Made by a program: the position numbers and the translations under genes. The notes under the pieces are model-generated. The model saw nothing but the letters and a program-made list of their open reading frames with translations. It was not told the DNA's origin and searched no databases. Of a stretch of DNA of 38,443 bases, positions 1,615-34,117 are shown in pieces. How positions within the stretch are numbered: the first letter of the stretch is position 1; every line of letters begins with the position of its first letter. Location of the stretch: positions 288 to 38,730 of the forward strand of contig CAZNBW010000002.1 in assembly GCA_964571585.1 (NCBI GenBank), read 5' to 3'. This DNA comes from an uncultured Candidatus Saccharibacteria bacterium. GTDB taxonomy: Bacteria; Patescibacteriota; Minisyncoccia; Minisyncoccales; GWA2-38-27.

Positions 1615-1789
1615 TTTTATATATTAACACGTTTTTAACCTCTTTGATATTGACCACGCTTAACAAACAAGATATCATAGAAGAATAGGTTGAATTTAAA
1701 CAGGAGACCGAATTATTTCTAAAACTCAGCTGCTTGAAGCTGTTAAAAAGAAACTTAAAAAGAATCCTTTTTTTTATTTAATCATTGCA

Positions 1790-9340: not shown

Positions 9341-12136
9341 ATGGATGAGCCGAAGGTTTTAATTTCAAAAAAATCCATTAGAACAATGGGAAAAGACATG
9401 GTTCGTGTTAAACGAGATGAACTTGACGTTGAAGAAAAGGGAAAAGATGATCAAAAAGCTTTATTTAAAGAGGTTGAAAAAAGAAAACAGGAGGAGGAAA
9501 GATTAATATCTTTGCAAGAGCAAGGAAAGAAAATTGTCCAAGAGGCCCGTCAAAAGCGGGAATCCGTTGACGTTAAAGCTTTGGCAGACAAGCAAGAAGA
9601 AATGAAAAAACAACAGGAAGCTAAGAGAACTGCAGCCTTGCAAGAATCAAGAAAAAAAGCAGAACAGGAAGATGAAAAAAGAGAACAAGAAGAAAGCAAG
9701 ATGGTAGAGACCAAAAGAATACCTGAAAAACCTGCAGCTATGCCAAAAGCTGTAGCTGAAAGAACAGAGAATGAAAAAGAAGAAATATCTCAAAAAGATA
9801 TGAAAAAGGAAGAGCTTTTAGAAAAAAGAAAAGCAATAGGGCAAGAAAAGACAAAAATCCAAGAAGAACTTAAAAGTTTGGACCCGGACAAAAAGCCTTT
9901 GGATATTAAGAAAAAGGCCATTTTAGAAGAGATAAGAACAGTCGAGCTTAGTTTTCAAGAAACTAAAATTAAAGAAGATGAAATAGAGCAAAAGCTTTCA
10001 GTGATTGAGAAAAGAGAAGCTCAGGCTAAAAACCCCCAGCAAAGAAGGTCTTTGGAAAAAAAGAGATGGAAACTCGAGAAAAAGAGAGAGGAAATAGAGA
10101 AAAAGAGATGGCCTGAAGATGAAAAATTAGAGCAGCTTGAGGCCAGGCTAAAGAGCATAGAAAGGGAAAGTAAGGGCATGGAAGCAAAAGAGCAGGAACT
10201 TTTAAGTAAACAAAAAGAGATTAATAAAAAAGAGCAGGATAATAATTTAAAAATAGAAAGAATTGATTTGGAAGAAACGTTAAAAGATATGGCAGAAAGC
10301 AAGGTCGTGTTTGAGGGTAAGGTGAACATTTTATTTAAGAATAATGAAGAGGCAAAAAACAACCTAAACGTTATTTTAGCAGAAGAAAAAAAGGTTGAGC
10401 AAGAAAAAGCAGAAACTGAGAATAAAGAAAGAGCAGCTGAGAGTAATTCTCAACGAAGAGAGCTGGAAAAAGCCAGATGGCAGATAGAAGAAAGAAGAAG
10501 ACAAACAGAGTCAAAGAGATGGAAGTTGGAGGAGGAAAGAGCAAAAATCTCCCAGGATTTAAAAGATTCTCAAAATAGATTGAAAGCTGTCTTAGATAAA
10601 AAGGAAAGCATTTCTAAGAGAATTGAAGAAATAGATCTTTTATTACAAGGGAAGACCCCGATTGTTCCACCAAAACCATTTATTCAGTCCACTGAACAAC
10701 CCAAAAGGGAGGAACCCAAAGAAGATCTAAAAAGGGGAGAACCTAAAGAAAAGCCTGAAAAAGAAGAACCTAAGAAAGAACCTAAAAAAGAAGAACCTTT
10801 GAAGGAAAAAACCAAGGAGGAAATCTTAAAAGAAGTAGAGGAAGAGAGAATAGTTAGAATAGAAGAAGCCAGAAAAAGAATAGATACCTTAAAAAAAGCA
10901 GCCCTAGAAAGAAAAGAAAGGCAGGAGCAGATGAAAAAAGCTGTCATGCCCTCAAATGCCAGGCAGAAATTGGAGCCTGTCCATGAAGATCCTGATCCTG
11001 GAAAAGAAGAGAGAAGAGCAGAAATAATGAGCCGTTTGAGAACGCCTGTTTCTATATATAAGAAGATTAGTAAATCTGATGATAGAAAACAGACAGGTGT
11101 TCCAACATCAGAAGAAATTATCAGGGTTGTCCCTAAAAAACCAAGTTTTAAAGAAAAGCTTTGGGTGAGGGCATTAATCGTTGCGGCCACCCTAGTTGTT
11201 TTAGCCGGGATACTTACTTTTTGGTATTGGTATTTTAGGATTAGAACTTCAGTTCCTGCTTACCCTCCAGGATATGAAAGGGAAAGAGAGGGAATCAGCA
11301 TTCCCACAGCTCTGTTTAACGTTACAGATACTACCATAATAACAATATCTGATAAAAAAGATCTTTCAGAATCTATCAAGAAGACCTTGGAGTCTTTCCA
11401 GCGTGTGGACAGATTTAAGCGCATAATTATTAAAAAAGAAGGAGAAATTGTTGGAGTAAAAGAATTATTTGAATTGTTAGAAGTTAATATTACAGAGAAC
11501 TTTTACGATAATATACTAGATGAGCCAACTATGTTTATATATTCACAGGGCCAGGGAAATAGATTTGGCTTTGTTGTTAAAACTTCTACTTCAGCTAAAG
11601 ATCTGAATATTGTTTTGAAGGCAGCAGAGCCTACAGCAGAGACAGACTTTGAACCTCTTTTTGTCTTAATGGGCAAAAAAGGTAAGGCCGTAGCCCCTTA
11701 TTTTAAAAATGCTGTAGACATGGAAGACTATACAGGCCTTGATTTTAGGTTCAAGACGTTGGATCAAAATGATCTGGCTATCACTTATGCTGCAACTGAT
11801 TATTATTTTGCATTTTCTTCTTCCTGGGAAAGCATGGAAAGTCTTTTAATGGAGCTTCAAAACTTTTTAGAAAACAAGGTTTTGACGAATGATTTAAAGC
11901 AGGGAGACCAGGGAAAGCAGGTTTCTCTTTTGCAGGGTTGGTTAGCAAAAGATTTAAGTATTGATAGCCCAGGATTTATTTCCGGCATTTACAACCAAGA
12001 AACAAAAGATTATGTTATTCTGTTTCAAGAGAAATATGCCTCAGACATATTAATACCCCAAGGTCAAACCAAAGGGACAGGAATTGTTGATTTAGCCACA
12101 AGAAGAAAACTAAACAATCTTTATTCTGATTTTTAA
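9341..12136 (+). CDS. Giant E/K-rich coiled-coil protein with one TM helix and a C-terminal peptidoglycan-binding (PG_binding_1-like) domain
   Basis: 931 aa. About 600 aa of charged low-complexity sequence with recurring ..RR.LEK.RW..E..R.. units. TM segment LWVRALIVAATLVVLAGILTFWYWYF. C-terminus LKQGDQGKQVSLLQGWLAKD..ISGIYNQETKDYVILFQEKY is PG-binding-like. Confidence 0.8.
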   Translation: MDEPKVLISKKSIRTMGKDMVRVKRDELDVEEKGKDDQKALFKEVEKRKQEEERLISLQEQGKKIVQEARQKRESVDVKALADKQEEMKKQQEAKRTAALQESRKKAEQEDEKREQEESKMVETKRIPEKPAAMPKAVAERTENEKEEISQKDMKKEELLEKRKAIGQEKTKIQEELKSLDPDKKPLDIKKKAILEEIRTVELSFQETKIKEDEIEQKLSVIEKREAQAKNPQQRRSLEKKRWKLEKKREEIEKKRWPEDEKLEQLEARLKSIERESKGMEAKEQELLSKQKEINKKEQDNNLKIERIDLEETLKDMAESKVVFEGKVNILFKNNEEAKNNLNVILAEEKKVEQEKAETENKERAAESNSQRRELEKARWQIEERRRQTESKRWKLEEERAKISQDLKDSQNRLKAVLDKKESISKRIEEIDLLLQGKTPIVPPKPFIQSTEQPKREEPKEDLKRGEPKEKPEKEEPKKEPKKEEPLKEKTKEEILKEVEEERIVRIEEARKRIDTLKKAALERKERQEQMKKAVMPSNARQKLEPVHEDPDPGKEERRAEIMSRLRTPVSIYKKISKSDDRKQTGVPTSEEIIRVVPKKPSFKEKLWVRALIVAATLVVLAGILTFWYWYFRIRTSVPAYPPGYEREREGISIPTALFNVTDTTIITISDKKDLSESIKKTLESFQRVDRFKRIIIKKEGEIVGVKELFELLEVNITENFYDNILDEPTMFIYSQGQGNRFGFVVKTSTSAKDLNIVLKAAEPTAETDFEPLFVLMGKKGKAVAPYFKNAVDMEDYTGLDFRFKTLDQNDLAITYAATDYYFAFSSSWESMESLLMELQNFLENKVLTNDLKQGDQGKQVSLLQGWLAKDLSIDSPGFISGIYNQETKDYVILFQEKYASDILIPQGQTKGTGIVDLATRRKLNNLYSDF

Positions 12137-12714: not shown

Positions 12715-14148
12715 ATGAATATACCTAAAAATGTAAAAGATATTATCAAAAAGCTGGAGAATAAAAAATTCCAGGCCTATTTAGTTGGCGGTTGCGTAAG
12801 GGATTTGTTAAGGGGAGAAAAACCAAAGGACTGGGATATTTCTGTTTCAGCTAAGCCAGAAGATATTCAAAAGATATTTCCTGATAGTTTCTGCAACAAT
12901 GAATTCGGCACAGTTAATGTTGCGGGAGTGGAAATCACCCCTTTCAGAACAGAAGAAAAGTACACAGACAAAAGACATCCTGATAAGATTGAATGGGTTG
13001 AAACAATAGAACAAGATCTTTCTCGCAGAGACTTTACTGTAAATGCTTTAGCTCTTAGGGTTGGTCCAGGGCAAGCTACCGAAATAGTAGATCTATACGA
13101 TGGAAGAGAAGATGTAAAGAAGAAAATAATACGTGCTGTTGGTAAGCCAGAAGATAGGTTTTCAGAAGATGCTTTAAGAATGATGAGGGCAGTAAGATTT
13201 GCAACTGTTTTGGGCTGGAAAATAGAAGATAATACTAAAAAAGCAATTAAACAGAACTCTTCTTTGCTTAGGGCTATTTCCAAAGAAAGAATAAGGGATG
13301 AGCTTCTAAAGATTATTATGGCAGACAAAGCAGCTTTTGGAATAGAGTTATTAAGAGAGCTTGATCTTTTAATATATATTATCCCGGAGCTTGAAGAGAA
13401 TTACGGAGTTTCACAGAACAAGCATCATATTTATGACTGCTATAAGCATGCAGTACTATCTTTAGAATTTGCTGCTAAAAGGAAGTTTAATATGCATGTT
13501 AGAATGGCCTCTCTTTTGCACGATATTGGAAAACCGGCAGCCAAAAGAGGCAAGGGCGAAGATGCTACTTTTTACAACCATGAGATGATTGGAGCTAAAA
13601 TGACAGTTAAGATTCTTGATAGATTAAGGTTTCCCAAGAAAGACATAGAGAAAATATCAAAGCTTGTCAGGTACCATTTATTTTATTATAACGTAGGAGA
13701 GGTTTCAGAAGCTTCTGTTAGAAGATTATTAAGAAAAGTAGGTTCTGAGAACATAGATGAGCTTTTGCAGTTGAGAATGGCAGACAGGATTGGCTCTGGT
13801 TGTCCTAAGGCGGAACCCTACAAGCTGCGCCACTTAAGATATGTTATAGAAAAGGTTTCCAAAGACCCGGTTTCTGTAAATATGCTTAAGGTTTCAGGCG
13901 AGGATGTGATGAAAGAGCTAAAAGAAAAGCCAGGTCCCAAAATAGGCCAGGTTTTAGATATCCTTTTAGGCTATGTTTTAGCAGATCCTAAAAAGAATAA
14001 AAAGGATTTTCTTAAAAAAGAGATCACTAAATTAGGCAAATTAAAAGATAAGGAATTAGAAAGGGTAGCTTTTGATGCTAAAAAAGAGAGAGATGAGATT
14101 ATAACAAAAGAGGATAAAATGACCAAAGAAAAGTACTGGGTCACTTAA
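12715..14148 (+). CDS. cca: CCA-adding tRNA nucleotidyltransferase with HD domain
   Basis: 477 aa. AYLVGGCVRDLL..KDWD head-domain motif, RRDFTVNAL, and an HD domain (LLHDIGKP, ..HLFYYN..). Confidence 0.9.
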   Translation: MNIPKNVKDIIKKLENKKFQAYLVGGCVRDLLRGEKPKDWDISVSAKPEDIQKIFPDSFCNNEFGTVNVAGVEITPFRTEEKYTDKRHPDKIEWVETIEQDLSRRDFTVNALALRVGPGQATEIVDLYDGREDVKKKIIRAVGKPEDRFSEDALRMMRAVRFATVLGWKIEDNTKKAIKQNSSLLRAISKERIRDELLKIIMADKAAFGIELLRELDLLIYIIPELEENYGVSQNKHHIYDCYKHAVLSLEFAAKRKFNMHVRMASLLHDIGKPAAKRGKGEDATFYNHEMIGAKMTVKILDRLRFPKKDIEKISKLVRYHLFYYNVGEVSEASVRRLLRKVGSENIDELLQLRMADRIGSGCPKAEPYKLRHLRYVIEKVSKDPVSVNMLKVSGEDVMKELKEKPGPKIGQVLDILLGYVLADPKKNKKDFLKKEITKLGKLKDKELERVAFDAKKERDEIITKEDKMTKEKYWVT

Positions 14149-16887: not shown

Positions 16888-17421
16888 ATGGAGCTTAAAA
16901 TAGGAGTAATACTGGGAATTGCATTCTTGGCAGTATACTTTTCACCAAGCACAGTAAAAGCTGCAGTTATTGGAGCACCTTTTGTGCCAGCTACTCTTAA
17001 AGCAGTTAAAAAAGGTCTTGAAATGGCTCGTTTAAGATCTGGAGAAACTTTTTATGATTTAGGTTCTGGCACAGGAAGAGTTTTAATTATCGCAGCCAAA
17101 AAGTTTTCTGCTAATGTTGTTGGTTTTGAATATTCAAGACCTCTTTATGTATTCTCTAGGATTAATATGTTTTTAAGAGGGATTAAGGGGAAAGTATATA
17201 ATAAGAACTTTTTTGAAGATGATATTGGTCTTGAAAAAGCAGACGTTATATTTTTATTCTTAACTTCCAAGGCTTTCCCCAAGCTTAGGTCAAGGCTGGA
17301 GAATGAAGTAAGGCCGGGCACAAGAATAATTGTTTATCTTTCCCCCTTGCTTTTCTGGGAGCCAGATGAAGAAATTACTTTAAAAGATAAAACAAAGGTT
17401 AGATTGTATATAAAAAGATGA
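16888..17421 (+). CDS. Class I SAM-dependent methyltransferase, membrane-anchored
   Basis: Motif I FYDLGSGTGRVLIIAA, post-I acidic VVGFE, and ADVIFLFL. Begins immediately after the preceding stop. Confidence 0.7.
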   Translation: MELKIGVILGIAFLAVYFSPSTVKAAVIGAPFVPATLKAVKKGLEMARLRSGETFYDLGSGTGRVLIIAAKKFSANVVGFEYSRPLYVFSRINMFLRGIKGKVYNKNFFEDDIGLEKADVIFLFLTSKAFPKLRSRLENEVRPGTRIIVYLSPLLFWEPDEEITLKDKTKVRLYIKR

Positions 17422-19151
17422 GCTTTATAAAAGACTTTAAAGTTATTTGGATTTATTTGAGAAAGTATAAAAAAGAGGTTGTTAAAATCTCTTTTTTAGC
17501 TGTGTTTTTTGCTGTTGCCTCAGGAATTATTCCATATATTTACGGCAGGCTGGTAGACATTGTTTCTTTAAGTTCTTTTTCTTCTCTCGTTCTGGCTTTT
17601 CTTGGATTGTGGGCTTTGCTTAGTTTGGTTTCAGAAGTTTTTAGAAGAGTAGTTGCTCTAAGGGGTGCTTTCTTAGGGTTTGAATCTTCGGCTGACCTGG
17701 TTTTAGAAAGCGCTTCTCATGTTATAAGCTTGCCGTTAAGTTTTCATAAAGAGAACAGAGTAGGAGAGGTTGTTTCCAGAATTACCAGAGCAGGAGATCA
17801 TTTGAGAGATATTATTGAGAATACTTTATTCTGGATACTTCCTCAATTTTTAACAGTTGCTATTGGTCTTATTGTTTTGTTTATAATAAACTGGCAGTTG
17901 TTTTTAGGTATAATTGTCATATTCGTCTTTTCTATTACAATAACTTTCCTAAGAGCTCCTCTTTTAATGAGGGGCCAAAAAGAAGTTAATAAGAGGTTTG
18001 ATTTTGCCGTTGGAACTTTGAACGACTCTTTTTTAAATATTCAGACAATAAAATCTTCTTCTGCAGAGGCTTTCCAGGGAGATAAAATAAGAGAAGTTTA
18101 TAAAAAAGAAATAGTTTCTTCTCAGAAAAAGGTTGCCTCTATTTGGGAGAACACAACTTTTTTCCAGGAAGTTATCTTTTCTTTGGGTTTTGTCCTGGTT
18201 TTTTCCTGGGCATTATTCCTTTTAAGCAACAAAACTATTAGTTCGGGCGTATTGATAATGTTCTTGGGCTATTTAAACCTCACTAGAATGCCCTTAAGGT
18301 TTATTTTATGGCAGTGGCTGGCAGTTCAAAGAGGATTAACAACTATTAAAAGATCCAGAGAGCTTTTAAAGATTAAAGCAGAAGATTATAATGACAAAGG
18401 AAGGGTTTTAGCTAACGTTAAAGGCAAGGTAGATTTTAAAAATGTTAGTTTTAACTATGAAGGCAAGTCCTTGGTTTTGAAGAGCATAAGCTTTAAAGCA
18501 AGGCCTGGAGAAAAGATTGCTTTGGTTGGAGGATCTGGGGGCGGTAAAACAACAGTAGCAGATCTTTTGTCTTTATATTATAAGGCGAAGAAAGGAGAGA
18601 TATTAATAGATGATGTTAATATCAAAAAGCTTAACCTTTCTTTTTTAAGAAGCATAATAGCCTATGTTCCCCAGGAAATCGTTCTGTTTAATGATACAAT
18701 TAAAAACAATATCTTGTACGGCAGGCCGTCAGCTTCAGAAAAAGATATTCTGGAGGCAGCTAGAATAGCTAACGCAGACCATTTTATATCCCGGCTTCCT
18801 CAAAAGTATGATACTTTGGTTGGAGAAAGAGGCATCAAGCTTTCTACCGGGCAGAAGCAGAGACTGGCAATTGCCAGGGCGGTCATAAGGAATCCCAAAA
18901 TACTTGTCTTAGATGAAGCAACCTCTTCTCTAGATGTTAAGTCAGAAAAGCTGGTTCAAGAAGCAATAGAGGCTTTAACAGAGAATAAAACGACATTTAT
19001 TATTGCCCATCGTTTGAGCACTGTTAGGAAAGCAGACAAAATACTTGTTATAGATAAAGGTAAAATAGCAGAACAGGGCAGGCACGAGCAGTTGATGAAG
19101 AAGAAAGGATTATATCATAGTTTTTATACCTTGCAGTTTTCCGAAGATTAA
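17418..19151 (+). CDS. ABC exporter, fused permease/ATPase (MsbA/type I exporter family)
   Basis: 577 aa. Six-TM N-terminal domain, Walker A GGSGGGKTT, signature LSTGQKQRLAIARA, Walker B ILVLDEATSSLD, H-loop IIAHRLST. Confidence 0.92.
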   Translation: MSFIKDFKVIWIYLRKYKKEVVKISFLAVFFAVASGIIPYIYGRLVDIVSLSSFSSLVLAFLGLWALLSLVSEVFRRVVALRGAFLGFESSADLVLESASHVISLPLSFHKENRVGEVVSRITRAGDHLRDIIENTLFWILPQFLTVAIGLIVLFIINWQLFLGIIVIFVFSITITFLRAPLLMRGQKEVNKRFDFAVGTLNDSFLNIQTIKSSSAEAFQGDKIREVYKKEIVSSQKKVASIWENTTFFQEVIFSLGFVLVFSWALFLLSNKTISSGVLIMFLGYLNLTRMPLRFILWQWLAVQRGLTTIKRSRELLKIKAEDYNDKGRVLANVKGKVDFKNVSFNYEGKSLVLKSISFKARPGEKIALVGGSGGGKTTVADLLSLYYKAKKGEILIDDVNIKKLNLSFLRSIIAYVPQEIVLFNDTIKNNILYGRPSASEKDILEAARIANADHFISRLPQKYDTLVGERGIKLSTGQKQRLAIARAVIRNPKILVLDEATSSLDVKSEKLVQEAIEALTENKTTFIIAHRLSTVRKADKILVIDKGKIAEQGRHEQLMKKKGLYHSFYTLQFSED

Positions 19152-19177
19152 TATAGTATTAGCATTAGTTATTTTTA

Positions 19178-19249
19178 GGGGCCATAGCTCAGTTGGTAGA
19201 GTGCCCCGCTTCGGTGGGGAGGTCGGGGGTTCAATTCCCTCTGGCTCCA
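19178..19249 (+). tRNA. tRNA-like gene with alanine acceptor identity (G3:U70, A73) but an aberrant anticodon arm
   Basis: 72 nt. Acceptor ggggcca/tggctcc with G3:U70, D arm gctc-agttggta-gagt, T arm ggggg-ttcaatt-ccctc, all close to canonical tRNA-Ala. The anticodon arm is ccccg-CTTCGG-tgggg, a 5-bp stem with only a 6-nt loop (equivalently a 6-bp stem capped by a UUCG tetraloop). The only 7-nt-loop register (CTTCGGT, anticodon TCG) leaves 3 Watson-Crick pairs. Confidence 0.7.
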
Positions 19250-19261
19250 GTTTTTTTTACA

Positions 19262-19284
19262 AGTCCTGTTATCAGGACTTTTTT
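19262..19284 (+). terminator. Rho-independent terminator after the tRNA-like gene
   Basis: agtcctg-ttat-caggact followed by T5. Confidence 0.7.
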
Positions 19285-19321
19285 CTTGAAATTATTTTCT
19301 AAAAAAGTTATAAATAAATAT

Positions 19322-24791: not shown

Positions 24792-25466
24792 CTACATGAG
24801 TTTAATTGAATGGTTTGGATTAACTAAATTTACTTGATTTTCTAGTACAATAGTCAGTGGTTCTGTTCCGTAGTTAGTAAGTGTCTGTTTCTCAATATAT
24901 CCGCCAGATTTTTCTGGGATGGCGATGATATCTCTGTTTAGGGTTTTAGAAAGTTTTTGTACTATTTTTTCATCAGAGGTTTTGTAATGGCATGCGATTG
25001 AGAATCCTTTAATGATTTTGAGTCCTACTGCCTCTGAAGAGGTGAGGTTTTTTGCCTCTGTTGTAGTGCGTATGTCTTCGCCGAGAATGATAGCTCCAGC
25101 GCTACCACCATAAAGCGGTATACCCCTTTGAGCCGCTTCACGAAGATAATTCTCAAAACCTGATTCGCGGATTTCTTTAAGAAGTTTTATCGTGTTGCCT
25201 CCGCCGATGTATACACCAGCAATATTGTTTACTTTATGGCGTGGATTAAGATCTTCCCACATTTCAATGGTCACAACGCCGAGTGGAGTCATGGATGAGC
25301 GAAACCATTTTAAGCAAGATTGGTACGGTTTAGAACGTATAGCGTTCGGAATATATACAAGAGGTTTTGCAAGGTTCAGTTTTTTAACGAATTGTTCGTC
25401 AAGAAGCTTCGAGTCTTTCTCGTCTCCACCTCCTGCCAGAAAAATATGTGTAGTTTTTCTATTCAT
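24792..25466 (-). CDS. Peptidase S51 (dipeptidase E/cyanophycinase-like, class I GATase-like fold) family protein
   Basis: ..HIFLAGGG.., VYIGGGNT, PLYGGSAGAIILG (nucleophile-elbow Ser). I prefer the ATG at 25466 (AAGGAG 6 nt upstream; ATGA overlap with the upstream stop) to the track start at 25490. Confidence 0.75.
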   Translation of the reverse strand: MNRKTTHIFLAGGGDEKDSKLLDEQFVKKLNLAKPLVYIPNAIRSKPYQSCLKWFRSSMTPLGVVTIEMWEDLNPRHKVNNIAGVYIGGGNTIKLLKEIRESGFENYLREAAQRGIPLYGGSAGAIILGEDIRTTTEAKNLTSSEAVGLKIIKGFSIACHYKTSDEKIVQKLSKTLNRDIIAIPEKSGGYIEKQTLTNYGTEPLTIVLENQVNLVNPNHSIKLM

Positions 25467-26638
25467 TTTATTCTCCTTTTGATTTTCCATACCCGTGTTA
25501 TGGGAATAACTTTTTTCTTTATTGCTTTACGTAGAAATTCTTCGTGACTTTGTTCAAATGATTCATCAATTCTCAAGACACGGTTGGCTTCAAGATTAAA
25601 ATCCCGATTTACTTCTCGCCAAATCACAGAATACGTATGTTCTTGTGATACTATGAGATCTGTAAAGGATGACCATTGTTTATGGTAATAACGTACGAGC
25701 TCATAGAGATTAAGACATTGTGCTTCTTCCATAATTAATCTAATCATGGTGCGGAGTTTTGATCCTTGATTTTTGTGATTAGGCACAACATCGGATCCTG
25801 CCATTAGTGTCGCCGTCCGGATTGCATCAAGTGTCACTCTTTTATGTATTATAACACACGAGAGCGGCCCGATGCTATCAAAATAGGAAGGGGACTTGTT
25901 TATAGCCCATATAAGACGTTCAAATCCTACGCCGATATCGCTCAAAGTTGCTACGGTATTGAATGGTTGAGGTATGTTGAAGAAGAAATTCGCAACACCA
26001 ATTTCCAGTCCGCCGTAGTTTATTTTGATCATCTCTGATGTTACTATGCGCCCGGTCCAATCATTATCGGCACGTTTAACCTTAAGACAAAGACCACTAA
26101 CATAAAGACCAAGATTTGAGAATAAATTTAACCAATGGTCTAGCGTGTTGAAATGGTCTTTTATCGTGGCATTCCAACATTCTGTTGCGCTATGTATGAA
26201 CGATGTGGAAGCACCATCAATCGTATCAACGAAGTCGATACCTTGCAATCGGATAACTGGTTGAAGCATTGAACATTGTTGTTGGTCGTCCTTTAAAGAT
26301 TTGCCATAGATTAGATCATCATAGATTTGACCAGCAGTGCTCGCGAAGAGAGTCCGTTCGTCGTTGCGAATAATTGCAATGGGTGTTTCTAGTTGATATC
26401 CTTGCGCAGGAAAGAATTTACGGAAAATTTCTGCGCATTCTTTTAGTTCAAGATATAACCTGGGGGCAGGAATATTAAGAAATTGGTAGCTGTTCGCACA
26501 ACTATATGAACCACAATGTGGTAAATCTCGTTTTGTGTAGTATTCCTCAAAACAAACGGGACACCGTTTTAGTTGCCAGTTTCGGCTGGCGAAAAAGTCA
26601 TTGCGTGCGGCGATTATAACGGAATATAGTTCTTTCAT
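25463..26638 (-). CDS. Stand-alone alanyl-tRNA-synthetase catalytic-core paralogue with N-terminal Cys4 zinc-ribbon-like segment; no editing or C-Ala domains
   Basis: Colinear with the E. coli AlaRS N-terminal domain as I recall it. FRKFFPAQGYQLETPIAIIRNDERTLFASTAGQIYDDLIYG vs [41 protein letters not shown]. QPVIR vs QRCVR. LEIGVANFFFN vs IEIWNIVFMQFN. LSDIGVGFERLIWAI vs SVDTGMGLERIAAVL. LDAIRTATLMAGSDVVPNHKNQGSKLRTMIRLI vs [35 protein letters not shown]. N-terminus has CPVC..x14..HCGSYSC. The ATG at 26638 has AAGGAG 8 nt upstream; the track start is a TTG at 26656. Confidence 0.75.
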   Translation of the reverse strand: MKELYSVIIAARNDFFASRNWQLKRCPVCFEEYYTKRDLPHCGSYSCANSYQFLNIPAPRLYLELKECAEIFRKFFPAQGYQLETPIAIIRNDERTLFASTAGQIYDDLIYGKSLKDDQQQCSMLQPVIRLQGIDFVDTIDGASTSFIHSATECWNATIKDHFNTLDHWLNLFSNLGLYVSGLCLKVKRADNDWTGRIVTSEMIKINYGGLEIGVANFFFNIPQPFNTVATLSDIGVGFERLIWAINKSPSYFDSIGPLSCVIIHKRVTLDAIRTATLMAGSDVVPNHKNQGSKLRTMIRLIMEEAQCLNLYELVRYYHKQWSSFTDLIVSQEHTYSVIWREVNRDFNLEANRVLRIDESFEQSHEEFLRKAIKKKVIPITRVWKIKRRIK

Positions 26639-26652
26639 TTTACATTCTCCTT

Positions 26653-27876
26653 TCAATAAAGCTTGATGGTTTTTGTCAGTAATTCTTCTGTAATTTTTGG
26701 AATTCGTTCCAGCTCTTCTTTTGTTATCCGCATAATAGTTTTCTCGTCGTATTTATTAGCGATGCGGACAATTGTTTGCCATGGTTTAGTTAGCAGTTGA
26801 CCGGCTTGGCTAATTAGCAATACTTCGCAAGCGCTTTGTGTCTCTTGGTAGATTCGTTTCGCTATTTTATGCGCTGCAACATTGTATAACTTGCCAGTAT
26901 AATATTTTGGATTTTTACCACACGCACCTTCAAGATTTATCGGCCTAAGTGGCGTAATTAGACCATTGATCCGATTGCCGCGGCCGACAATTCCTTCATC
27001 ACCGGACTCAATTGATGAACCTATGGCAGTAAGGTATACATCGTTTCGTGTAAAATCATCTCTTGTATTAAGCCAAAGAGTTATTTCTGTCTCGGGGAGA
27101 AGTACACTTAGTCTGTTTTCAATCAATACTCTTGTCTCTGCGAGATTTTCTCGATAAACATCAATCGATTGAACATATTGGGCAATCTGTGGTAAACAGA
27201 TGGTTATTCCGCATTGATGCCCGATTTTTGTTGCCATGATCTTTATATCGGTTCCGAGCCAAGGATATTTTTGTTTAGTGAGGACGGAATTAAGTTCTTC
27301 TTCAATCTTGAGTACCATTTGTTCAAGTGGAGATAGTGGAGCATATCCACATCCTATAGAAGTATCATTATTGAGAAGACGGTCGTATCCTTTCACTTCA
27401 CTGATATTTCGTGGTGTAAAAAGATGAGCACGAGAACCAGTGCTCTGCTTAGTTTTTCCGGGGCCGCTTGCGCTACTAACAAACCAGTGTGTCTTTATAT
27501 CTTGTTTAGAATTGATAAGGTCTCCGAACATTTTGGAAAAAAAGTTCCTGGTTTCTAGTTCAAGCAGGTCGCGCACGGGAATTTTTTCATTAGCAAAAGA
27601 TACCGAAGCGCGACCGTTGAGAATTACTCGAATAGGACTTGTAATTTTTCCTTTGCCGAAATCAACTTCCGTAGTGCCACCAAGCACCGATACTTTGTCG
27701 AAGTTATGGTGCATTATAGCTCCGAAATGATTCTGTGTATAACGTGAGTACGCCACAGATAAGTTTTCAGCTAATGCATCAGCGATAGTATCGGGATGTC
27801 CAATGCCTTTTCGTTCAATAACTTCAATTTTTAGTTCGTCTAATTGAGGGGTGTGTATTATATTCAGACTTTTCAT
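26653..27876 (-). CDS. Archaeal-type S-adenosylmethionine synthetase (MAT, AdoMet_Synthase family) homologue, divergent
   Basis: 407 aa. VIERKGIGHPDTIAD, HHNFDKVSVLGG, NDTSIGCGYAPLSPLEQMVL, GTDIKIM, VYLTAIGSSIESGDEGIVGRGNRINGLITPLRPINLEGACGKNP..GKLYNVAAHKIA are colinear with the M. jannaschii-type MAT as I recall it. There is a distinct insert (SSASGPGKTKQSTGSRAHLFTPRNISEVKGYDRL) where the archaeal enzyme has IGQGS.DL. RBS aAAGGAGaaaaa-ATG. Confidence 0.8.
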   Translation of the reverse strand: MKSLNIIHTPQLDELKIEVIERKGIGHPDTIADALAENLSVAYSRYTQNHFGAIMHHNFDKVSVLGGTTEVDFGKGKITSPIRVILNGRASVSFANEKIPVRDLLELETRNFFSKMFGDLINSKQDIKTHWFVSSASGPGKTKQSTGSRAHLFTPRNISEVKGYDRLLNNDTSIGCGYAPLSPLEQMVLKIEEELNSVLTKQKYPWLGTDIKIMATKIGHQCGITICLPQIAQYVQSIDVYRENLAETRVLIENRLSVLLPETEITLWLNTRDDFTRNDVYLTAIGSSIESGDEGIVGRGNRINGLITPLRPINLEGACGKNPKYYTGKLYNVAAHKIAKRIYQETQSACEVLLISQAGQLLTKPWQTIVRIANKYDEKTIMRITKEELERIPKITEELLTKTIKLY

Positions 27877-32991: not shown

Positions 32992-33066
32992 AAAAACTGA
33001 AATAAGGCATTGATATATTTCAGAAAATCAGCAAAAACTGAAATATGGGGTTATGTATTTTGCAAT

Positions 33067-33110
33067 CTGTATGTTTTTAGTATACAATTGTATGTAGATA
33101 ACATACAATT
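33067..33110. promoter_or_regulatory. Candidate operator: 12-bp palindrome ATACAATTGTAT plus extra CATACAAT half-sites upstream of the MNT-HEPN pair
   Basis: Palindrome at 33082-33093, half-site catacaat at 33102-33109, partial tgtatg at 33069-33074. Ends 14 nt before the ATG at 33124. Confidence 0.35.
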
Positions 33111-33123
33111 TATTTTTTTGTTT

Positions 33124-33675
33124 ATGCCTCTAAGATTTACTAAAAACCAAAGCTTAATACTCGAGTTGTTTTTTAGTGACCCAAATAAAAAGTATTATTT
33201 AAGAGAGATAGGAAAAATTCTTGGTAAGGAACCGGGTGTTTTTCAAAAAGACATTAATAAACTAGTTGATGGCGGTATTTTGTTTAGCGAATTTATTGCC
33301 AACAGCCGTTTTTTTGAATTGAATAAAGGTTATTCTCTATACGAAGAGCTAAAAAGTGTCTTTTTTAAAACAGTGGGCGTTGAGGGCAGTTTAAGAGATA
33401 TACTGCGAAAAATTAAAGGCATAAATGTTGCTTTTATTTTCGGTTCTTTCGCGAAAAACAAAGAAGACTCTTTATCTGATGTTGATTTAATGATAATAGG
33501 CAAGCCGGATGATGATTTGCTTATTGGGGAGATTTCTAAATTAGAGAAAAAAATTAATAGAGAGATTAATTATCATATTTTTTCTAAAGAAGAAATTAGC
33601 AGAAAAGATTCTTTTATGATAGGCATATTGGGCGGTCCGAAAATATTTTTAATAGGCGGAGAAAATGAACTATAA
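33124..33675 (+). CDS. wHTH + minimal nucleotidyltransferase (MNT) domain protein, antitoxin-type
   Basis: N-terminal wHTH-like segment (YLREIGKILGKEPGVFQKDINKLVDGGIL). NTase motif FIFGSFAKNKEDSLSDVDLMIIG. Start trimmed to the ATG at 33124 (MPLRFTKNQ..). Confidence 0.75.
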   Translation: MPLRFTKNQSLILELFFSDPNKKYYLREIGKILGKEPGVFQKDINKLVDGGILFSEFIANSRFFELNKGYSLYEELKSVFFKTVGVEGSLRDILRKIKGINVAFIFGSFAKNKEDSLSDVDLMIIGKPDDDLLIGEISKLEKKINREINYHIFSKEEISRKDSFMIGILGGPKIFLIGGENEL

Positions 33676-34117
33676 AGAATTTATCGAAAAAGGACTTGTC
33701 CAAGAAGATAATATCGGTTTTGGCCAAGTAAGTAAATTACTGGAGAGGAGTTTTAGGAACATTAAAAGCGCTAAGACTCTAGTTAAAGATGATGATAAAG
33801 AAGGAGCTTTTCGTTTCGCTTATGATGCAATGCTTTTAGCCGGCAGGGCCTTAGTTTTTTCTTATAATTTAAGACCAAGAAGTATAGGTTCTCATAAAAT
33901 TGTAGTAGATTTTACAGAAGAAGTTATGGGAAAAGATTATAAGATATTAATTCAGAAATTTGATAGAATGAGAAGAAAAAGAAACTATTTGATTTACGGA
34001 GTTGGCTTGGCGGTTTCTTCAACAGAGGCAGAGAACGCAATTGATACGGCCGAAGAATTTCTGAAAACAATTAAATATTTTATTAAAAAGAAAAATCCCC
34101 AAATAGAATTATTATAG
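33665..34117 (+). CDS. HEPN domain protein, toxin-type partner of the MNT
   Basis: 150 aa, predicted helical. Rx4H motif (RSIGSH) and ..MRRKRNYLIYG.. typical of HEPN. 11-nt overlap with the MNT gene. Confidence 0.75.
   Translation: MNYKEFIEKGLVQEDNIGFGQVSKLLERSFRNIKSAKTLVKDDDKEGAFRFAYDAMLLAGRALVFSYNLRPRSIGSHKIVVDFTEEVMGKDYKILIQKFDRMRRKRNYLIYGVGLAVSSTEAENAIDTAEEFLKTIKYFIKKKNPQIELL

Follow-up and report, generated by a model that had tools for sequence, protein, structure and literature searches.

Transfer RNA is the link between an anticodon and an amino acid, and the known natural exceptions to this rule either keep their anticodon, as does the staphylococcal cell-wall tRNA-Gly, or have become another machine, as has tmRNA. 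Other tRNA mimics that are handled by tRNA enzymes and have non-decoding functions include the tRNA-like structures of plant RNA viruses and mascRNA (Rfam RF01684). They differ from the 72-nt RNA analysed here in that they sit within longer transcripts, eukaryotic or viral, and adopt pseudoknotted or divergent folds; to our knowledge none of them has alanine identity. The mascRNA model gave only 12 bits on the 72-nt RNA.

The tRNA-like domain of tmRNA is a natural bacterial RNA with an alanine acceptor stem containing G3·U70, which is charged by AlaRS in the absence of an anticodon (PMC4151336, PMC2175365). The 72-nt RNA resembles it in lacking an anticodon and in having G3·U70, and tmRNA has a long helix in the place of the anticodon arm. 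However, tmRNA has no D stem, needs SmpB at the anticodon-arm position and contains pseudoknots and a tag-encoding frame, whereas in the RNA described here the D arm and variable loop are complete and there is no reading frame, 72 nt being too short to hold a tag frame. Identity with tmRNA was rejected: ARAGORN made no tmRNA call, and the best Rfam score, 9.5 bits for tmRNA_permuted (gathering threshold 47), was obtained on a 104-nt orthologue. In S. aureus, extra genes for non-proteinogenic tRNA-Gly are charged by the normal synthetase and their product is diverted to FemXAB (PMC7826273, PMC9976931). In contrast to our RNA, those tRNAs have a normal anticodon loop, are excluded from translation by weak EF-Tu binding and carry glycine; a Fem-type enzyme is linked there, while none was found in the DNA analysed here or at the loci of nine relatives. 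Charging with alanine is governed by G3·U70, and AlaRS ignores the anticodon (PMC9976931). As summarized in that work, an anticodon is dispensable for the alanylation of acceptor/T-arm helices that carry G3·U70 and A73 (Francklyn and Schimmel 1989, via PMC9976931). FemX(Wv) reads the acceptor arm alone, with G2-C71 as the main determinant, and also accepts acceptor/T-arm helices (PMC2655667). Alanine minihelices are, however, laboratory constructs, whereas the capped RNA is the product of a gene in a genome, and its full L-shaped body has been kept by selection. In the literature on anticodon-less tRNAs, tRNA-like RNAs, CPR bacteria and alanylation, we found no account of such genes.

A tRNA-Ala gene with a capped anticodon arm

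The window, i.e. the whole stretch of 38,443 nucleotides that was analysed, contains a 72-nt gene whose sequence reads, 5′ to 3′, GGGGCCA UA GCUC AGUUGGUA GAGU G CCCCG CUUCGG UGGGG in its first half and AGGUC GGGGG UUCAAUU CCCUC UGGCUCC A in the remainder. Coordinates of the gene, its parts and its surroundings are collected in Table 1. An earlier note on this DNA, made from the letters alone, had described a tRNA-Ala body that is close to canonical and contains G3:U70 and A73, and had proposed checking it with ARAGORN and a covariance model. Both the sequence and the check agree with this description. The Rfam tRNA model RF00005 scored 58.1 bits on the gene (gathering threshold 29) and placed the deletion in the anticodon loop, while ARAGORN reported “tRNA-??? 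anticodon (tc)”, corresponding to a loop of 6 nt and a 2-nt anticodon. The acceptor stem begins with G1:C72, G2:C71, G3·U70 and G4:C69, and the full alanine identity set (G3·U70, A73 and G2:C71) is present. All parts that are read by processing and charging enzymes are kept, including the 7-bp acceptor stem, the D arm with G18 and G19, the 5-nt variable loop and the T arm. The D arm has an unusual G10·U25 pair, which is also found in a canonical tRNA-Ala(UGC) orthologue (locus L040, see below). The minimum free energy and centroid structures are both cloverleaves (−33.6 kcal/mol), with an anticodon stem of 6 bp closed by UUCG. When searched with a pattern specific for tRNA-Ala but with an arm shortened by one base, the window gave a single match, and 100 shuffled sequences gave none.

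Table 1. Features of the window discussed in the text
Feature	Position	Strand	Remarks
tRNA-Arg(TCG)	12577	−	ARAGORN
CCA-adding enzyme gene	12715-14148		
tRNA-Ala(CGC)	14693		ARAGORN
ABC transporter gene (fused permease/ATPase)	17418..19151	+	upstream of the tRNA-like gene; synteny anchor; Pfam ABC_membrane and ABC_tran
Conserved 5′ flank	19131..19177	+	TTGCAG at 19131-19136; −10-like TAGTAT at 19154-19159; short leader
tRNA-Ala-derived gene without anticodon	19178..19249	+	72 nt; no encoded CCA; Rfam, ARAGORN, fold
Acceptor stem, 5′ strand GGGGCCA	19178..19184	+	pairs with UGGCUCC at 19242-19248; discriminator A73 at 19249
D arm GCUC / AGUUGGUA / GAGU	19187..19202	+	G18 G19, G10·U25; sequence, Rfam, fold
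Capped “anticodon” arm CCCCGC-UUCG-GUGGGG	19204..19219	+	UUCG tetraloop at 19210-19213
Variable loop AGGUC and T arm GGGGG / UUCAAUU / CCCUC	19220..19241	+	sequence, Rfam
Intrinsic-terminator-like hairpin and U-run	19261..19286	+	hairpin at 19261-19280; scan match
Truncated AlaRS paralogue ORF	25463-26656	−	distant homologue of the archaeal-type AlaRS catalytic domain

The arm in the place of the anticodon arm is 16 nt long rather than the usual 17 and consists of a 5-bp stem extended by a C:G closing pair, with pair probabilities of 0.98–0.99. Folded alone, it reaches −10.1 kcal/mol, compared to −2.8 to −5.9 kcal/mol for nearby canonical arms, and it is more stable than its shuffled versions (z = −2.8). 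A functional decoder would present a 7-nt loop with U33 and three free bases; here, the loop has 6 nt and closes to C(UUCG)G. Because this hyperstable cap replaces the anticodon loop, no three bases are offered for codon pairing. The claim that the arm is one base short, capped and devoid of an anticodon is thus borne out by both the 2-nt anticodon of ARAGORN and the fold. An intron-containing tRNA (archaeal BHB or group I) was also considered and rejected, since the gene is one base short and nothing can be removed from it. The gene and its flanks recur letter for letter in two further assemblies, one from ENA (L001) and one from JGI (L002); the three agreeing assemblies stem from at least two different samples and assemblers.

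The tRNA-like gene starts 26 nt past the stop codon of the ABC transporter gene. The 5′ flank has 90% mean column identity over five syntenic loci, compared to 49–68% in the 3′ flank, and its TAGTAT box sits directly past the ABC stop codon. A conserved −10-like box in the spacer suggests that the gene has its own promoter; a consensus promoter scan of the window did not list this site. The flank is a possible promoter together with an RNase P leader. A T-run and terminator of the gene's own had also been claimed, and a hairpin, AAGUCCUG-UUAU-CAGGACUU, followed by a U-run was indeed found (−12.2 kcal/mol, z = −4.3). Its counterparts are present at all five syntenic loci, with stem sequences that differ.

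The tRNA-Ala(CGC) and tRNA-Arg(TCG) genes that had been seen nearby were both recovered, and to this extent the view of the capped gene as an extra one stands. It needs qualifying in that the gene is the positional orthologue of the tRNA-Ala(UGC) in L040, and no tRNA-Ala(UGC) able to decode was found in the 38-kb window. GCA is heavily used (88 of the 254 alanine codons) and, therefore, must be decoded by the product of another gene, presumably a separate tRNA-Ala(UGC) encoded elsewhere in this genome.

Orthologues at the same locus and the wider family

The genes for homologues of the window ABC protein with 88–78% identity are accompanied by a tRNA or tRNA-like gene in the same position. Relatives had been expected to reveal whether the variant recurs. 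Anticodon-less genes were found at the same locus, but the exact 6-nt-loop form is rare, and one relative, L040, carries an ordinary canonical tRNA-Ala(UGC) at this position after the ABC gene. The L039 orthologue is 81 nt long and has a 24-nt arm, UCCC-GA-CCUC-ACGU-GAGG-GA-GGGA. Orthologues in L044, L079 and L045-48 are 104 nt long with a 47-nt arm; the L045-type gene was seen in four JGI samples, and its arm retains vestiges (UUUGC..CGCGA) of a canonical arm. The ABC reading frame in L044 and L045 extends into the tRNA-like gene. Both the 24-nt and the 47-nt arms are hairpins unrelated to the 16-nt arm of the window, and the orthologues score 45–49 bits with RF00005. The arms of L039, L044 and L045 contain no intact anticodon loop, and an intron in them was rejected. 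More distant ABC homologues (66–75% identity; L041, L043, L049, L085 and L086) were tried as anchors and rejected, synteny being lost.

Identity of the tRNA body between these lineages is 0.76–0.89, compared to 0.46–0.64 at four-fold sites and 0.49–0.68 in the 3′ flank. All five syntenic lineages retain G3·U70 and A73, even as both partners of pairs 5:68 and 7:66 vary; among the anticodon-less orthologues compensatory changes occur at 7:66, 50:64 and 51:63. Across the wider family described below, the T-stem pairs 49:65, 50:64 and 51:63 covary. Of the stem cells in the alignment of the whole family, 99.8% are paired; double-change cells number 61, compared to 18.6 in shuffles (none of 500 shuffles reached 61). 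A pseudogene would decay over its whole length and lose stem complementarity, which is not what the alignment shows. Judged from these sequence comparisons, the body has been held by purifying selection in at least four diverged lineages, while the arm has been free to diverge. In a tree of the ABC proteins, the canonical L040 is nested among the anticodon-less orthologues (97% bootstrap), and the locus therefore tolerates either form; its history may be one of repeated loss, replacement or gene conversion.

Pattern scans revealed about 25 further G3·U70 genes with rod-like arms of 16–50 nt, some of them UNCG-capped. They include a gene with a C(UACG)G cap in a Patescibacteria MAG (L006), a gene with a rod-like arm in a Saccharibacteria MAG (L021) and genes with rod-like arms at some 20 metagenome loci. 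The rod-like arms are mostly significantly more stable than shuffled sequences. Large parts of the D arm and T loop are prescribed by the search patterns, and matches were then filtered for G3:U70, so the conservation of all these positions in this possibly heterogeneous set is partly by construction. Matches with G3:C70 (e.g. L062, an Ile UAU gene with an insert) fit the intron class and were excluded. T-stem pairs, in which changes could weaken EF-Tu binding, are G:C, G·U, A:U and U·U in the family with no obvious trend. The family extends to at least one giant phage: one member (L057/L090) lies within a 20-tRNA array on a 288-kb viral contig. In L054, L057/L090 and L060 the family member is adjoined by a normal, non-identical tRNA-Ala(UGC), and the two are not recent duplicates. 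In L068 and L074/75 the Ala-like gene follows tRNA-Arg(UCG) at a distance of 9–10 nt, and the same order is kept with wider spacing in L043. Beside nine diverse family members no recurrent partner gene was found, only unrelated housekeeping genes.

A scan of 185,579 species genomes for the one-base-short form gave 36 matches, about 30 of which are ordinary tRNA-Ala genes with deletions; the same scan of viral contigs gave none. No match was obtained in a UNCG-cap scan of the metagenome_contigs collection, which evidently does not include the JGI contig known to carry the gene. Frameshift-suppressor and “tRNA-???” genes in phage arrays are reported by ARAGORN in the same way, and the L057/L090 member does lie in a viral array. 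However, suppressor tRNAs have enlarged loops of 8–9 nt that still present bases, whereas here the loop closes into a tetraloop or gives way to a long rod.

Proposed function and alternative explanations

Taken as a sequence-based prediction, the gene probably encodes a functional tRNA-Ala derivative that is unable to decode. Its transcript would be processed by RNase P and RNase Z, receive CCA from the CCA-adding enzyme encoded in the window and, following the alanine identity rules (PMC9976931), be alanylated by the housekeeping AlaRS. The product should not be accepted in the 70S decoding site. By analogy with enzymes of the Fem/MurM or MprF type, our preferred guess is that it would serve as a ribosome-independent carrier or donor of the alanyl group, a use that the earlier note had listed among several possible roles. 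Since arms in relatives reach about 20 bp and share no tip motif, the user would recognize the acceptor/T/D “top” of the RNA alone. Domains of the Fem, MprF, L/F-transferase or CDPS kind were found neither in the 38-kb window nor beside the nine relatives. RqcH-type alanine tailing, which needs no mRNA, was considered as well; a role in it is unlikely, since the part of tRNA-Ala(UGC) that RqcH reads is the anticodon loop and the family arms have no tip motif in common.

Several other explanations were weighed against a non-decoding tRNA-Ala derivative. Many one-base-short tRNA-Ala matches in long-read MAGs resemble sequencing errors, and an assembly deletion masking a 7-nt loop had been raised as something to check for this gene. 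Yet a normal tRNA gene with an artefactual one-base deletion is almost certainly not what we see: the sequence is the same in all three assemblies, despite their different samples and assemblers, one base added to CUUCGG yields no alanine anticodon, and the anticodon is missing in the orthologues too. It is also extremely improbable that the gene decodes, either by inserting alanine at CGA/CGG through a UCG anticodon in a 7-nt register or by reading a doublet with its 6-nt loop and shifting the frame. The loops CUUCGG (window and L057) and CUACGG (L006) do look like Arg-type anticodon loops minus one base, and ARAGORN called the L057 copy tRNA-Arg(tcg). However, the 7-nt register comprises 3 bp only and is less stable by 7.3 kcal/mol, with pair probabilities of ~5e-5. 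An NCG loop is absent from the orthologues in L039, L044 and L045, arms of up to 50 nt in relatives are too long for the 30S decoding site, and the window already has a normal tRNA-Arg(UCG). The unfavourable register and the lack of a UCG-like loop in orthologues speak against the Ala-identity/Arg-anticodon chimera that the earlier note had envisaged; a functional non-decoding RNA explains the gene better than a decoder does.

The gene might instead be a non-functional relic, a redundant tRNA-Ala(UGC) copy that lost its anticodon and is now decaying, with hairpin arms that are accidental. This would fit the confinement of the exact 6-nt-loop form to the window lineage in the collections searched, the plain deletions in ordinary genes that make up most one-base-short matches elsewhere, the normal gene in L040 and the canonical-arm vestiges in L045. 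We nevertheless regard decay, including the fresh pseudogene once suggested, as quite unlikely, given that in four lineages divergence of the body lags far behind that of four-fold sites and of the 3′ flank, that stem changes are compensatory, and that in every lineage only the anticodon arm is damaged. Moreover, the arm caps are unusually stable and include three independent occurrences of UNCG, conservation extends to the 5′ flank and the terminator, and capped genes and adjoining normal tRNA-Ala(UGC) genes are not recent duplicates. A tRNA-shaped processing or stability element, at which RNase P/RNase Z cleavage would set the 3′ end of the ABC mRNA or separate neighbouring tRNAs with aminoacylation being irrelevant, is an unlikely explanation. 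The short distance to the ABC gene and the entry of its frame into the tRNA-like gene in L044 and L045, the conserved terminator that closes the unit, the normal tRNA-Ala that occupies the same slot in L040, as if any tRNA fold sufficed, and the lack of a partner enzyme in the window and at the nine relatives' loci are all consistent with it. On the other hand, G3·U70 and A73, which are not needed by RNase P, are kept in all syntenic lineages while other acceptor pairs vary, and a G·U pair without selection would be expected to turn into G:C or A:U. The D arm and elbow are likewise retained in full, the members in L043, L068 and L074 follow a tRNA rather than an mRNA, and the −10-like box points to a separate promoter. 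Lastly, a truncated AlaRS paralogue had been noticed about 6 kb downstream and thought a conceivable partner of the RNA. The paralogue, of 397 aa, is a real distant AlaRS homologue that includes the aminoacylation domain together with a portion of the domain for tRNA recognition. It retains the catalytic signature (QPxxR, GLE, D234 and GxER) and four invariant N-terminal cysteines, which may bind zinc. Although this protein shares the 38-kb window with the tRNA-like gene, it is very unlikely that the RNA is its dedicated substrate. The conserved neighbour of the paralogue is a Peptidase_S51 gene, to which it is fused in P0160 and P0169, and no tRNA-like gene was found by ARAGORN, a regular expression or Rfam within 10 kb of it in L082, L083 and L084 (two of them near-identical). 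In addition, no paralogue more than 74% identical was present in the protein database, yet the ABC proteins of the closest carriers of tRNA-like genes are 78–88% identical, and the normal AlaRS should already charge the RNA.

If the predicted tRNA-Ala derivative is charged, it would be the first case known to us of a complete tRNA body under selection with its anticodon sealed off. It would suggest that organisms of minimal metabolism carry out a reaction that depends on alanine but not on the ribosome, and it would constitute a natural “orthogonal” non-decoding Ala-tRNA scaffold. More tentatively, and with rather more doubt than confidence, we suggest that candidate-phyla bacteria and some large phages may keep a class of full-length anticodon-less Ala-tRNAs with an inert, fast-evolving cap, which would be dedicated alanyl carriers or have another function that uses only the acceptor arm, and which tRNA finders miss or mislabel. 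ARAGORN labelled relatives identified here as tRNAs for Arg, Val, Phe, Gly, Thr, Glu, Asp or Leu, or did not report them at all; errors of this kind can bias tRNA surveys and the inference of genetic codes from metagenome-assembled genomes.

Fold and identity of the capped gene

Five tRNA genes were found in the window with ARAGORN. One of them, the tRNA-Ala-like gene hereafter referred to as the capped gene, was labelled 'tRNA-???' with a two-base anticodon. Against the Rfam tRNA model it scored 58.1 bits (gathering threshold 29), in an alignment that required an anticodon-loop deletion. When the sequence was folded alone, both the minimum free energy and the centroid structures were a cloverleaf (-33.6 kcal/mol) with an anticodon stem of six pairs closed by UUCG, the arm pairs having probabilities of 0.98-0.99. 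These tRNA-finder and covariance-model checks had been proposed in an earlier note made from the sequence alone, and they bear out its description of a tRNA-Ala-like gene with the anticodon loop replaced by a CUUCGG cap. The neighbouring tRNA-Ala(CGC) and tRNA-Arg(UCG), the T-run and the terminator hairpin that it listed are likewise all present. Its alternative register, with three pairs and a seven-base loop presenting 'UCG', is disfavoured by 7.3 kcal/mol, its pairs having probabilities of about 5e-5. The capped gene has the fold and the alanine identity set, and no presentable anticodon.

The protein of the ABC gene directly upstream is encoded residue for residue on two more contigs (ENA ERZ27248922 and JGI 3300005645), in which the capped gene with 150-nt flanks is also identical to the window. 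Since these contigs come from different sources, an assembly artefact is ruled out.

Features of the window and of loci (L) from other assemblies
Source	Position	Strand	Feature
Window	9341-12136	+	931-aa ORF, no Pfam match
Window	12715-14148		CCA-adding enzyme
Window	17418-19151	+	ABC gene (fused ABC transporter)
Window	19178-19249	+	Capped gene, GGGGCCA-UA-GCUC-AGUUGGUA-GAGU-G-CCCCG-CUUCGG-UGGGG-AGGUC-GGGGG-UUCAAUU-CCCUC-UGGCUCC-A
Window	24792-25490	-	Peptidase_S51 (PepE/cyanophycinase-like) gene
Window	25463-26656	-	AlaRS paralogue: genuine, highly diverged homologue of the archaeal-type AlaRS aminoacylation domain
Window	33010-34117	+	Adjacent nucleotidyltransferase (Polbeta/NTP_transf_2) and HEPN-domain genes
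L039			ABC 88% identity; 81-nt gene, identical acceptor stem, rod arm UCCC-GA-CCUC-ACGU-GAGG-GA-GGGA
L044			ABC 80%; 104-nt gene, 47-nt arm (also L079, from metagenome scan)
L044	10001-11770		ABC frame ending ...HFQGP*
L045-L048 (four JGI samples)			ABC 79%; 104-nt gene, arm homologous to that of L044
L045	7565-9310		ABC frame ending ...SEDSYNI*
L040			ABC 78%; canonical tRNA-Ala(UGC), loop UUUGCAC
L006	1790-2268		tRNA cluster with several aberrant genes
L021	4330-4401	-	Short-looped Ala-like gene, G3·U70 and A73
L034	6264-6844		Five tandem truncated tRNA 5' portions, cut within T arm
L050	552-632		G3·U70/A73 gene, encoded CCA, 20-nt arm
L053	6566-6646		As L050
L070	188-268		As L050
L054	915-995	-	ARAGORN tRNA-Ala(UGC), unusual 5' half
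L087 (viral contig)	1686-1763	-	As L054
L090	4539-4615	-	CUUCGG-capped Ala-like gene ~50 nt from normal tRNA-Ala(UGC); ARAGORN label tRNA-Arg(tcg)
L082	5359-5490	+	LOOT RNA (RF03000, 76.6 bits) upstream of trypsin-like protease gene

Conservation of the syntenic locus

An archaeal-type SAM synthetase, together with the labels given to the sources of homologous proteins, places the organism among candidate-phyla (Patescibacteria/Parcubacteria-type) bacteria. Syntenic relatives were located with ABC-protein homologues as anchors, and the gene immediately downstream was read. Below about 75% ABC identity synteny was gone. The relatives' genes are all still recognised as tRNA by Rfam (45-49 bits); ARAGORN missed the 104-nt genes and called the L039 gene 'tRNA-Val'. 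With the anticodon arm removed, the remaining body is 76-89% identical between syntenic lineages, compared with 46-64% for third codon positions with four-fold degeneracy in the neighbouring ABC gene and 49-68% for the 3' flank. Stem changes are compensatory (7:66 A:U to G:C; 50:64 G·U, G:C or A:U; 51:63 G:C to A:U), and G3·U70 and A73 are unchanged throughout. The 80 nt 5' of the gene are 90% identical across lineages, with a TA[G/A]TAT box just past the ABC stop codon, and a terminator (hairpin and U-run) with a different stem sequence each time follows the gene in every lineage. At the level of sequence comparison, the body is conserved while the arm evolves freely, and the pattern is that of an RNA, transcribed and structured, on which purifying selection acts everywhere but in the anticodon arm. 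The slow divergence of the body, the compensatory stems, the 5' flank and the terminators argue against a pseudogene.

Neighbour joining with bootstrapping on the ABC proteins gave the tree ((window, L039) 100, (L044, (L045, L040) 97) 98) 98, which nests the canonical tRNA-Ala(UGC) of L040 among anticodon-less genes. The L045 arm retains UUUGC..CGCGA, matching the loop and 3' stem strand of L040, followed by an insert of about 33 nt common to L044. On this single-gene tree the choice is between two histories: repeated loss of the anticodon, or replacement or conversion of L040's capped copy by a decoding one. In L044 and L045 the ABC frame lacks the ancestral stop and continues to the start of the tRNA-like gene or into it.

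Related genes in other genomes

In 185,579 species genomes, a tRNA-Ala-like pattern with the arm one base short matched at 36 loci. Some 30 of these are tRNA-Ala(UGC/GGC) genes of the usual kind that have suffered a deletion; most are from 'MFD'-labelled MAGs, and they are therefore probably assembly errors or pseudogenes. The exceptions were candidate-phyla genomes; a C(UACG)G-capped copy was found in a Patescibacteria MAG (L006) and a short-looped copy in a Saccharibacteria MAG (L021). The L006 Ala-like gene has U73. Its cluster also includes a normal tRNA-Phe, a 'tRNA-Gly(ACC)' whose loop ACACCAU has C33, and a second non-Ala gene whose loop (in UUCGAC-CGCCAA-GUCGAA) spans 6 or 8 nt. ARAGORN reads the L021 gene as tRNA-Stop(UUA) using a C33 loop; it folds instead into 6 bp and a UUA triloop. 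Candidate readings are a capped Ala-like gene and a UAA suppressor that inserts Ala. The tandem truncated copies of L034, a Chitinophagaceae long-read MAG, precede an intact tRNA-Ala(GGC) and may represent an array of repeats at an integration site or an error of assembly.

An expanded-arm pattern matched 32 metagenome loci and four viral contigs. G3:C70 genes, some of them clearly intron-containing tRNAs of other identities, were removed, leaving about 20 distinct G3·U70 genes, most with A73. Their arms, of 20-50 nt, form rods whose stability in most cases significantly exceeds that of shuffles. In 25 different sequences taken without their arms, pairing held in 99.8% of the stem cells and 61 cells had double changes, against 18.6 in shuffles (0 of 500 reached 61); the set had been collected with patterns in which D arm and T loop are partly fixed, and pre-filtered for paired stems and G3:U70. 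The 3' acceptor strand, absent from the pattern, was intact in 31 of the 32 metagenome matches. The UNCG cap recurs in L057 (7 bp and CUUCGG), a contig also present as viral contig L090 (IMGVR_UViG_3300028177_000001, 288,255 bp, viral according to IMG/VR), where the gene sits inside an array of 20 tRNAs in 9.3 kb.

In L054, L057/L090 and L060 the capped gene is an extra one, adjoined by a normal tRNA-Ala(UGC) that is not a recent duplicate of it. A tRNA-Arg(UCG) precedes the capped gene by 9-10 nt in L068 and L074/75, an order kept with wider spacing in L043. In L043 and L074 it stands inside a block of a large protein, a DksA-like protein, tRNA-Arg and CCA-adding enzyme, of which the window's version has the tRNA-Arg only, without the capped gene. 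One candidate-phyla group thus carries the capped gene at either of two alternative loci. The large protein is the 931-aa ORF of the window, and its block is syntenic in L039, L040, L043, L044 and L074.

The related genes of L050, L053 and L070 are perhaps not capped genes but Ala-identity tRNAs with expanded loops: their arms form 5 bp and a 10-nt loop or 7 bp and a 6-nt loop, every loop has UGU then RA, and the stems are compensatory (CAACG/CGUUG versus CAGCG/CGCUG). The L054 and L087 genes have a very unusual 5' half (GGGGAAUGGGACUGCUAUGGGGUGGUC...) with no standard D arm.

Possible function and partners

Alanine charging is governed by G3·U70; AlaRS ignores the anticodon and also accepts minihelices (PMC9976931). 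By these rules the capped RNA would be processed, given CCA by the enzyme encoded in the window and alanylated by the normal AlaRS. It would not be selectable on any codon, and its long-armed relatives would not fit the 30S decoding site. GCA makes up 88 of 254 alanine codons sampled in the genome, so a decoding tRNA-Ala(UGC) must presumably be encoded elsewhere. Since the arm tips have no common motif, a user of the RNA would read the acceptor/T/D part only.

Our preferred guess, by analogy, is a ribosome-independent alanyl donor. FemX(Wv) requires the acceptor arm only, with G2-C71 as the main determinant (PMC2655667), and staphylococci have dedicated cell-wall tRNAs (PMC7826273); no Fem-type or cell-wall-type aminoacyl transferase is encoded in the window or beside nine relatives. 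The main rival is that the RNA serves purely as an RNase P/Z 'punctuation' element, a role weakened by the retention of G3·U70 and A73 and by the copies linked to tRNA-Arg. Among known systems, the tRNA-like domain of tmRNA comes closest in function, being Ala-charged and devoid of an anticodon; the capped RNA has a complete D arm, and no tmRNA model scores on it. The nearest conceptual analogue, staphylococcal non-proteinogenic tRNA-Gly, retains its anticodon. Literature searches turned up no description of genomic anticodon-less alanine tRNAs. We place the capped gene among non-decoding tRNA derivatives and regard its structure and conservation as solid and surprising.

The earlier note had also called it conceivable that the AlaRS paralogue and the capped RNA form a dedicated pair. 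The paralogue, a stand-alone version of the catalytic domain of 391-397 aa, matches PDB 2ztg and 3wqy with E about 1e-11; its match to TIGR03683, at E 1.6e-15, falls well short of that model's cut-off. Across its family (67 clusters of about 391 aa, mostly CPR-labelled), four cysteines of the N-terminal region are invariant and the AlaRS catalytic residues are retained, with the motif-2/motif-3 signature QPxxR, GLE, N..F, D234 and GxER. The gene block comprises SAM synthetase, AlaRS-like and S51 genes; the S51 gene always adjoins the AlaRS-like gene (28-nt overlap here), and in database proteins P0160 and P0169 the two are fused. In three other contigs, two of them near-identical, the 10 kb around the paralogue on each side contain no tRNA-like gene. 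With Peptidase_S51 as the conserved neighbour, the enzyme/RNA pair is unsupported at the level of gene neighbourhood, and AlaRS-like and S51 proteins may form an uncharacterised amino-acid ligase/peptidase pair. The LOOT RNA of L082 is on a contig that carries an AlaRS-like gene. Elsewhere in the window, the nucleotidyltransferase and HEPN-domain genes have an MNT-HEPN toxin-antitoxin layout.
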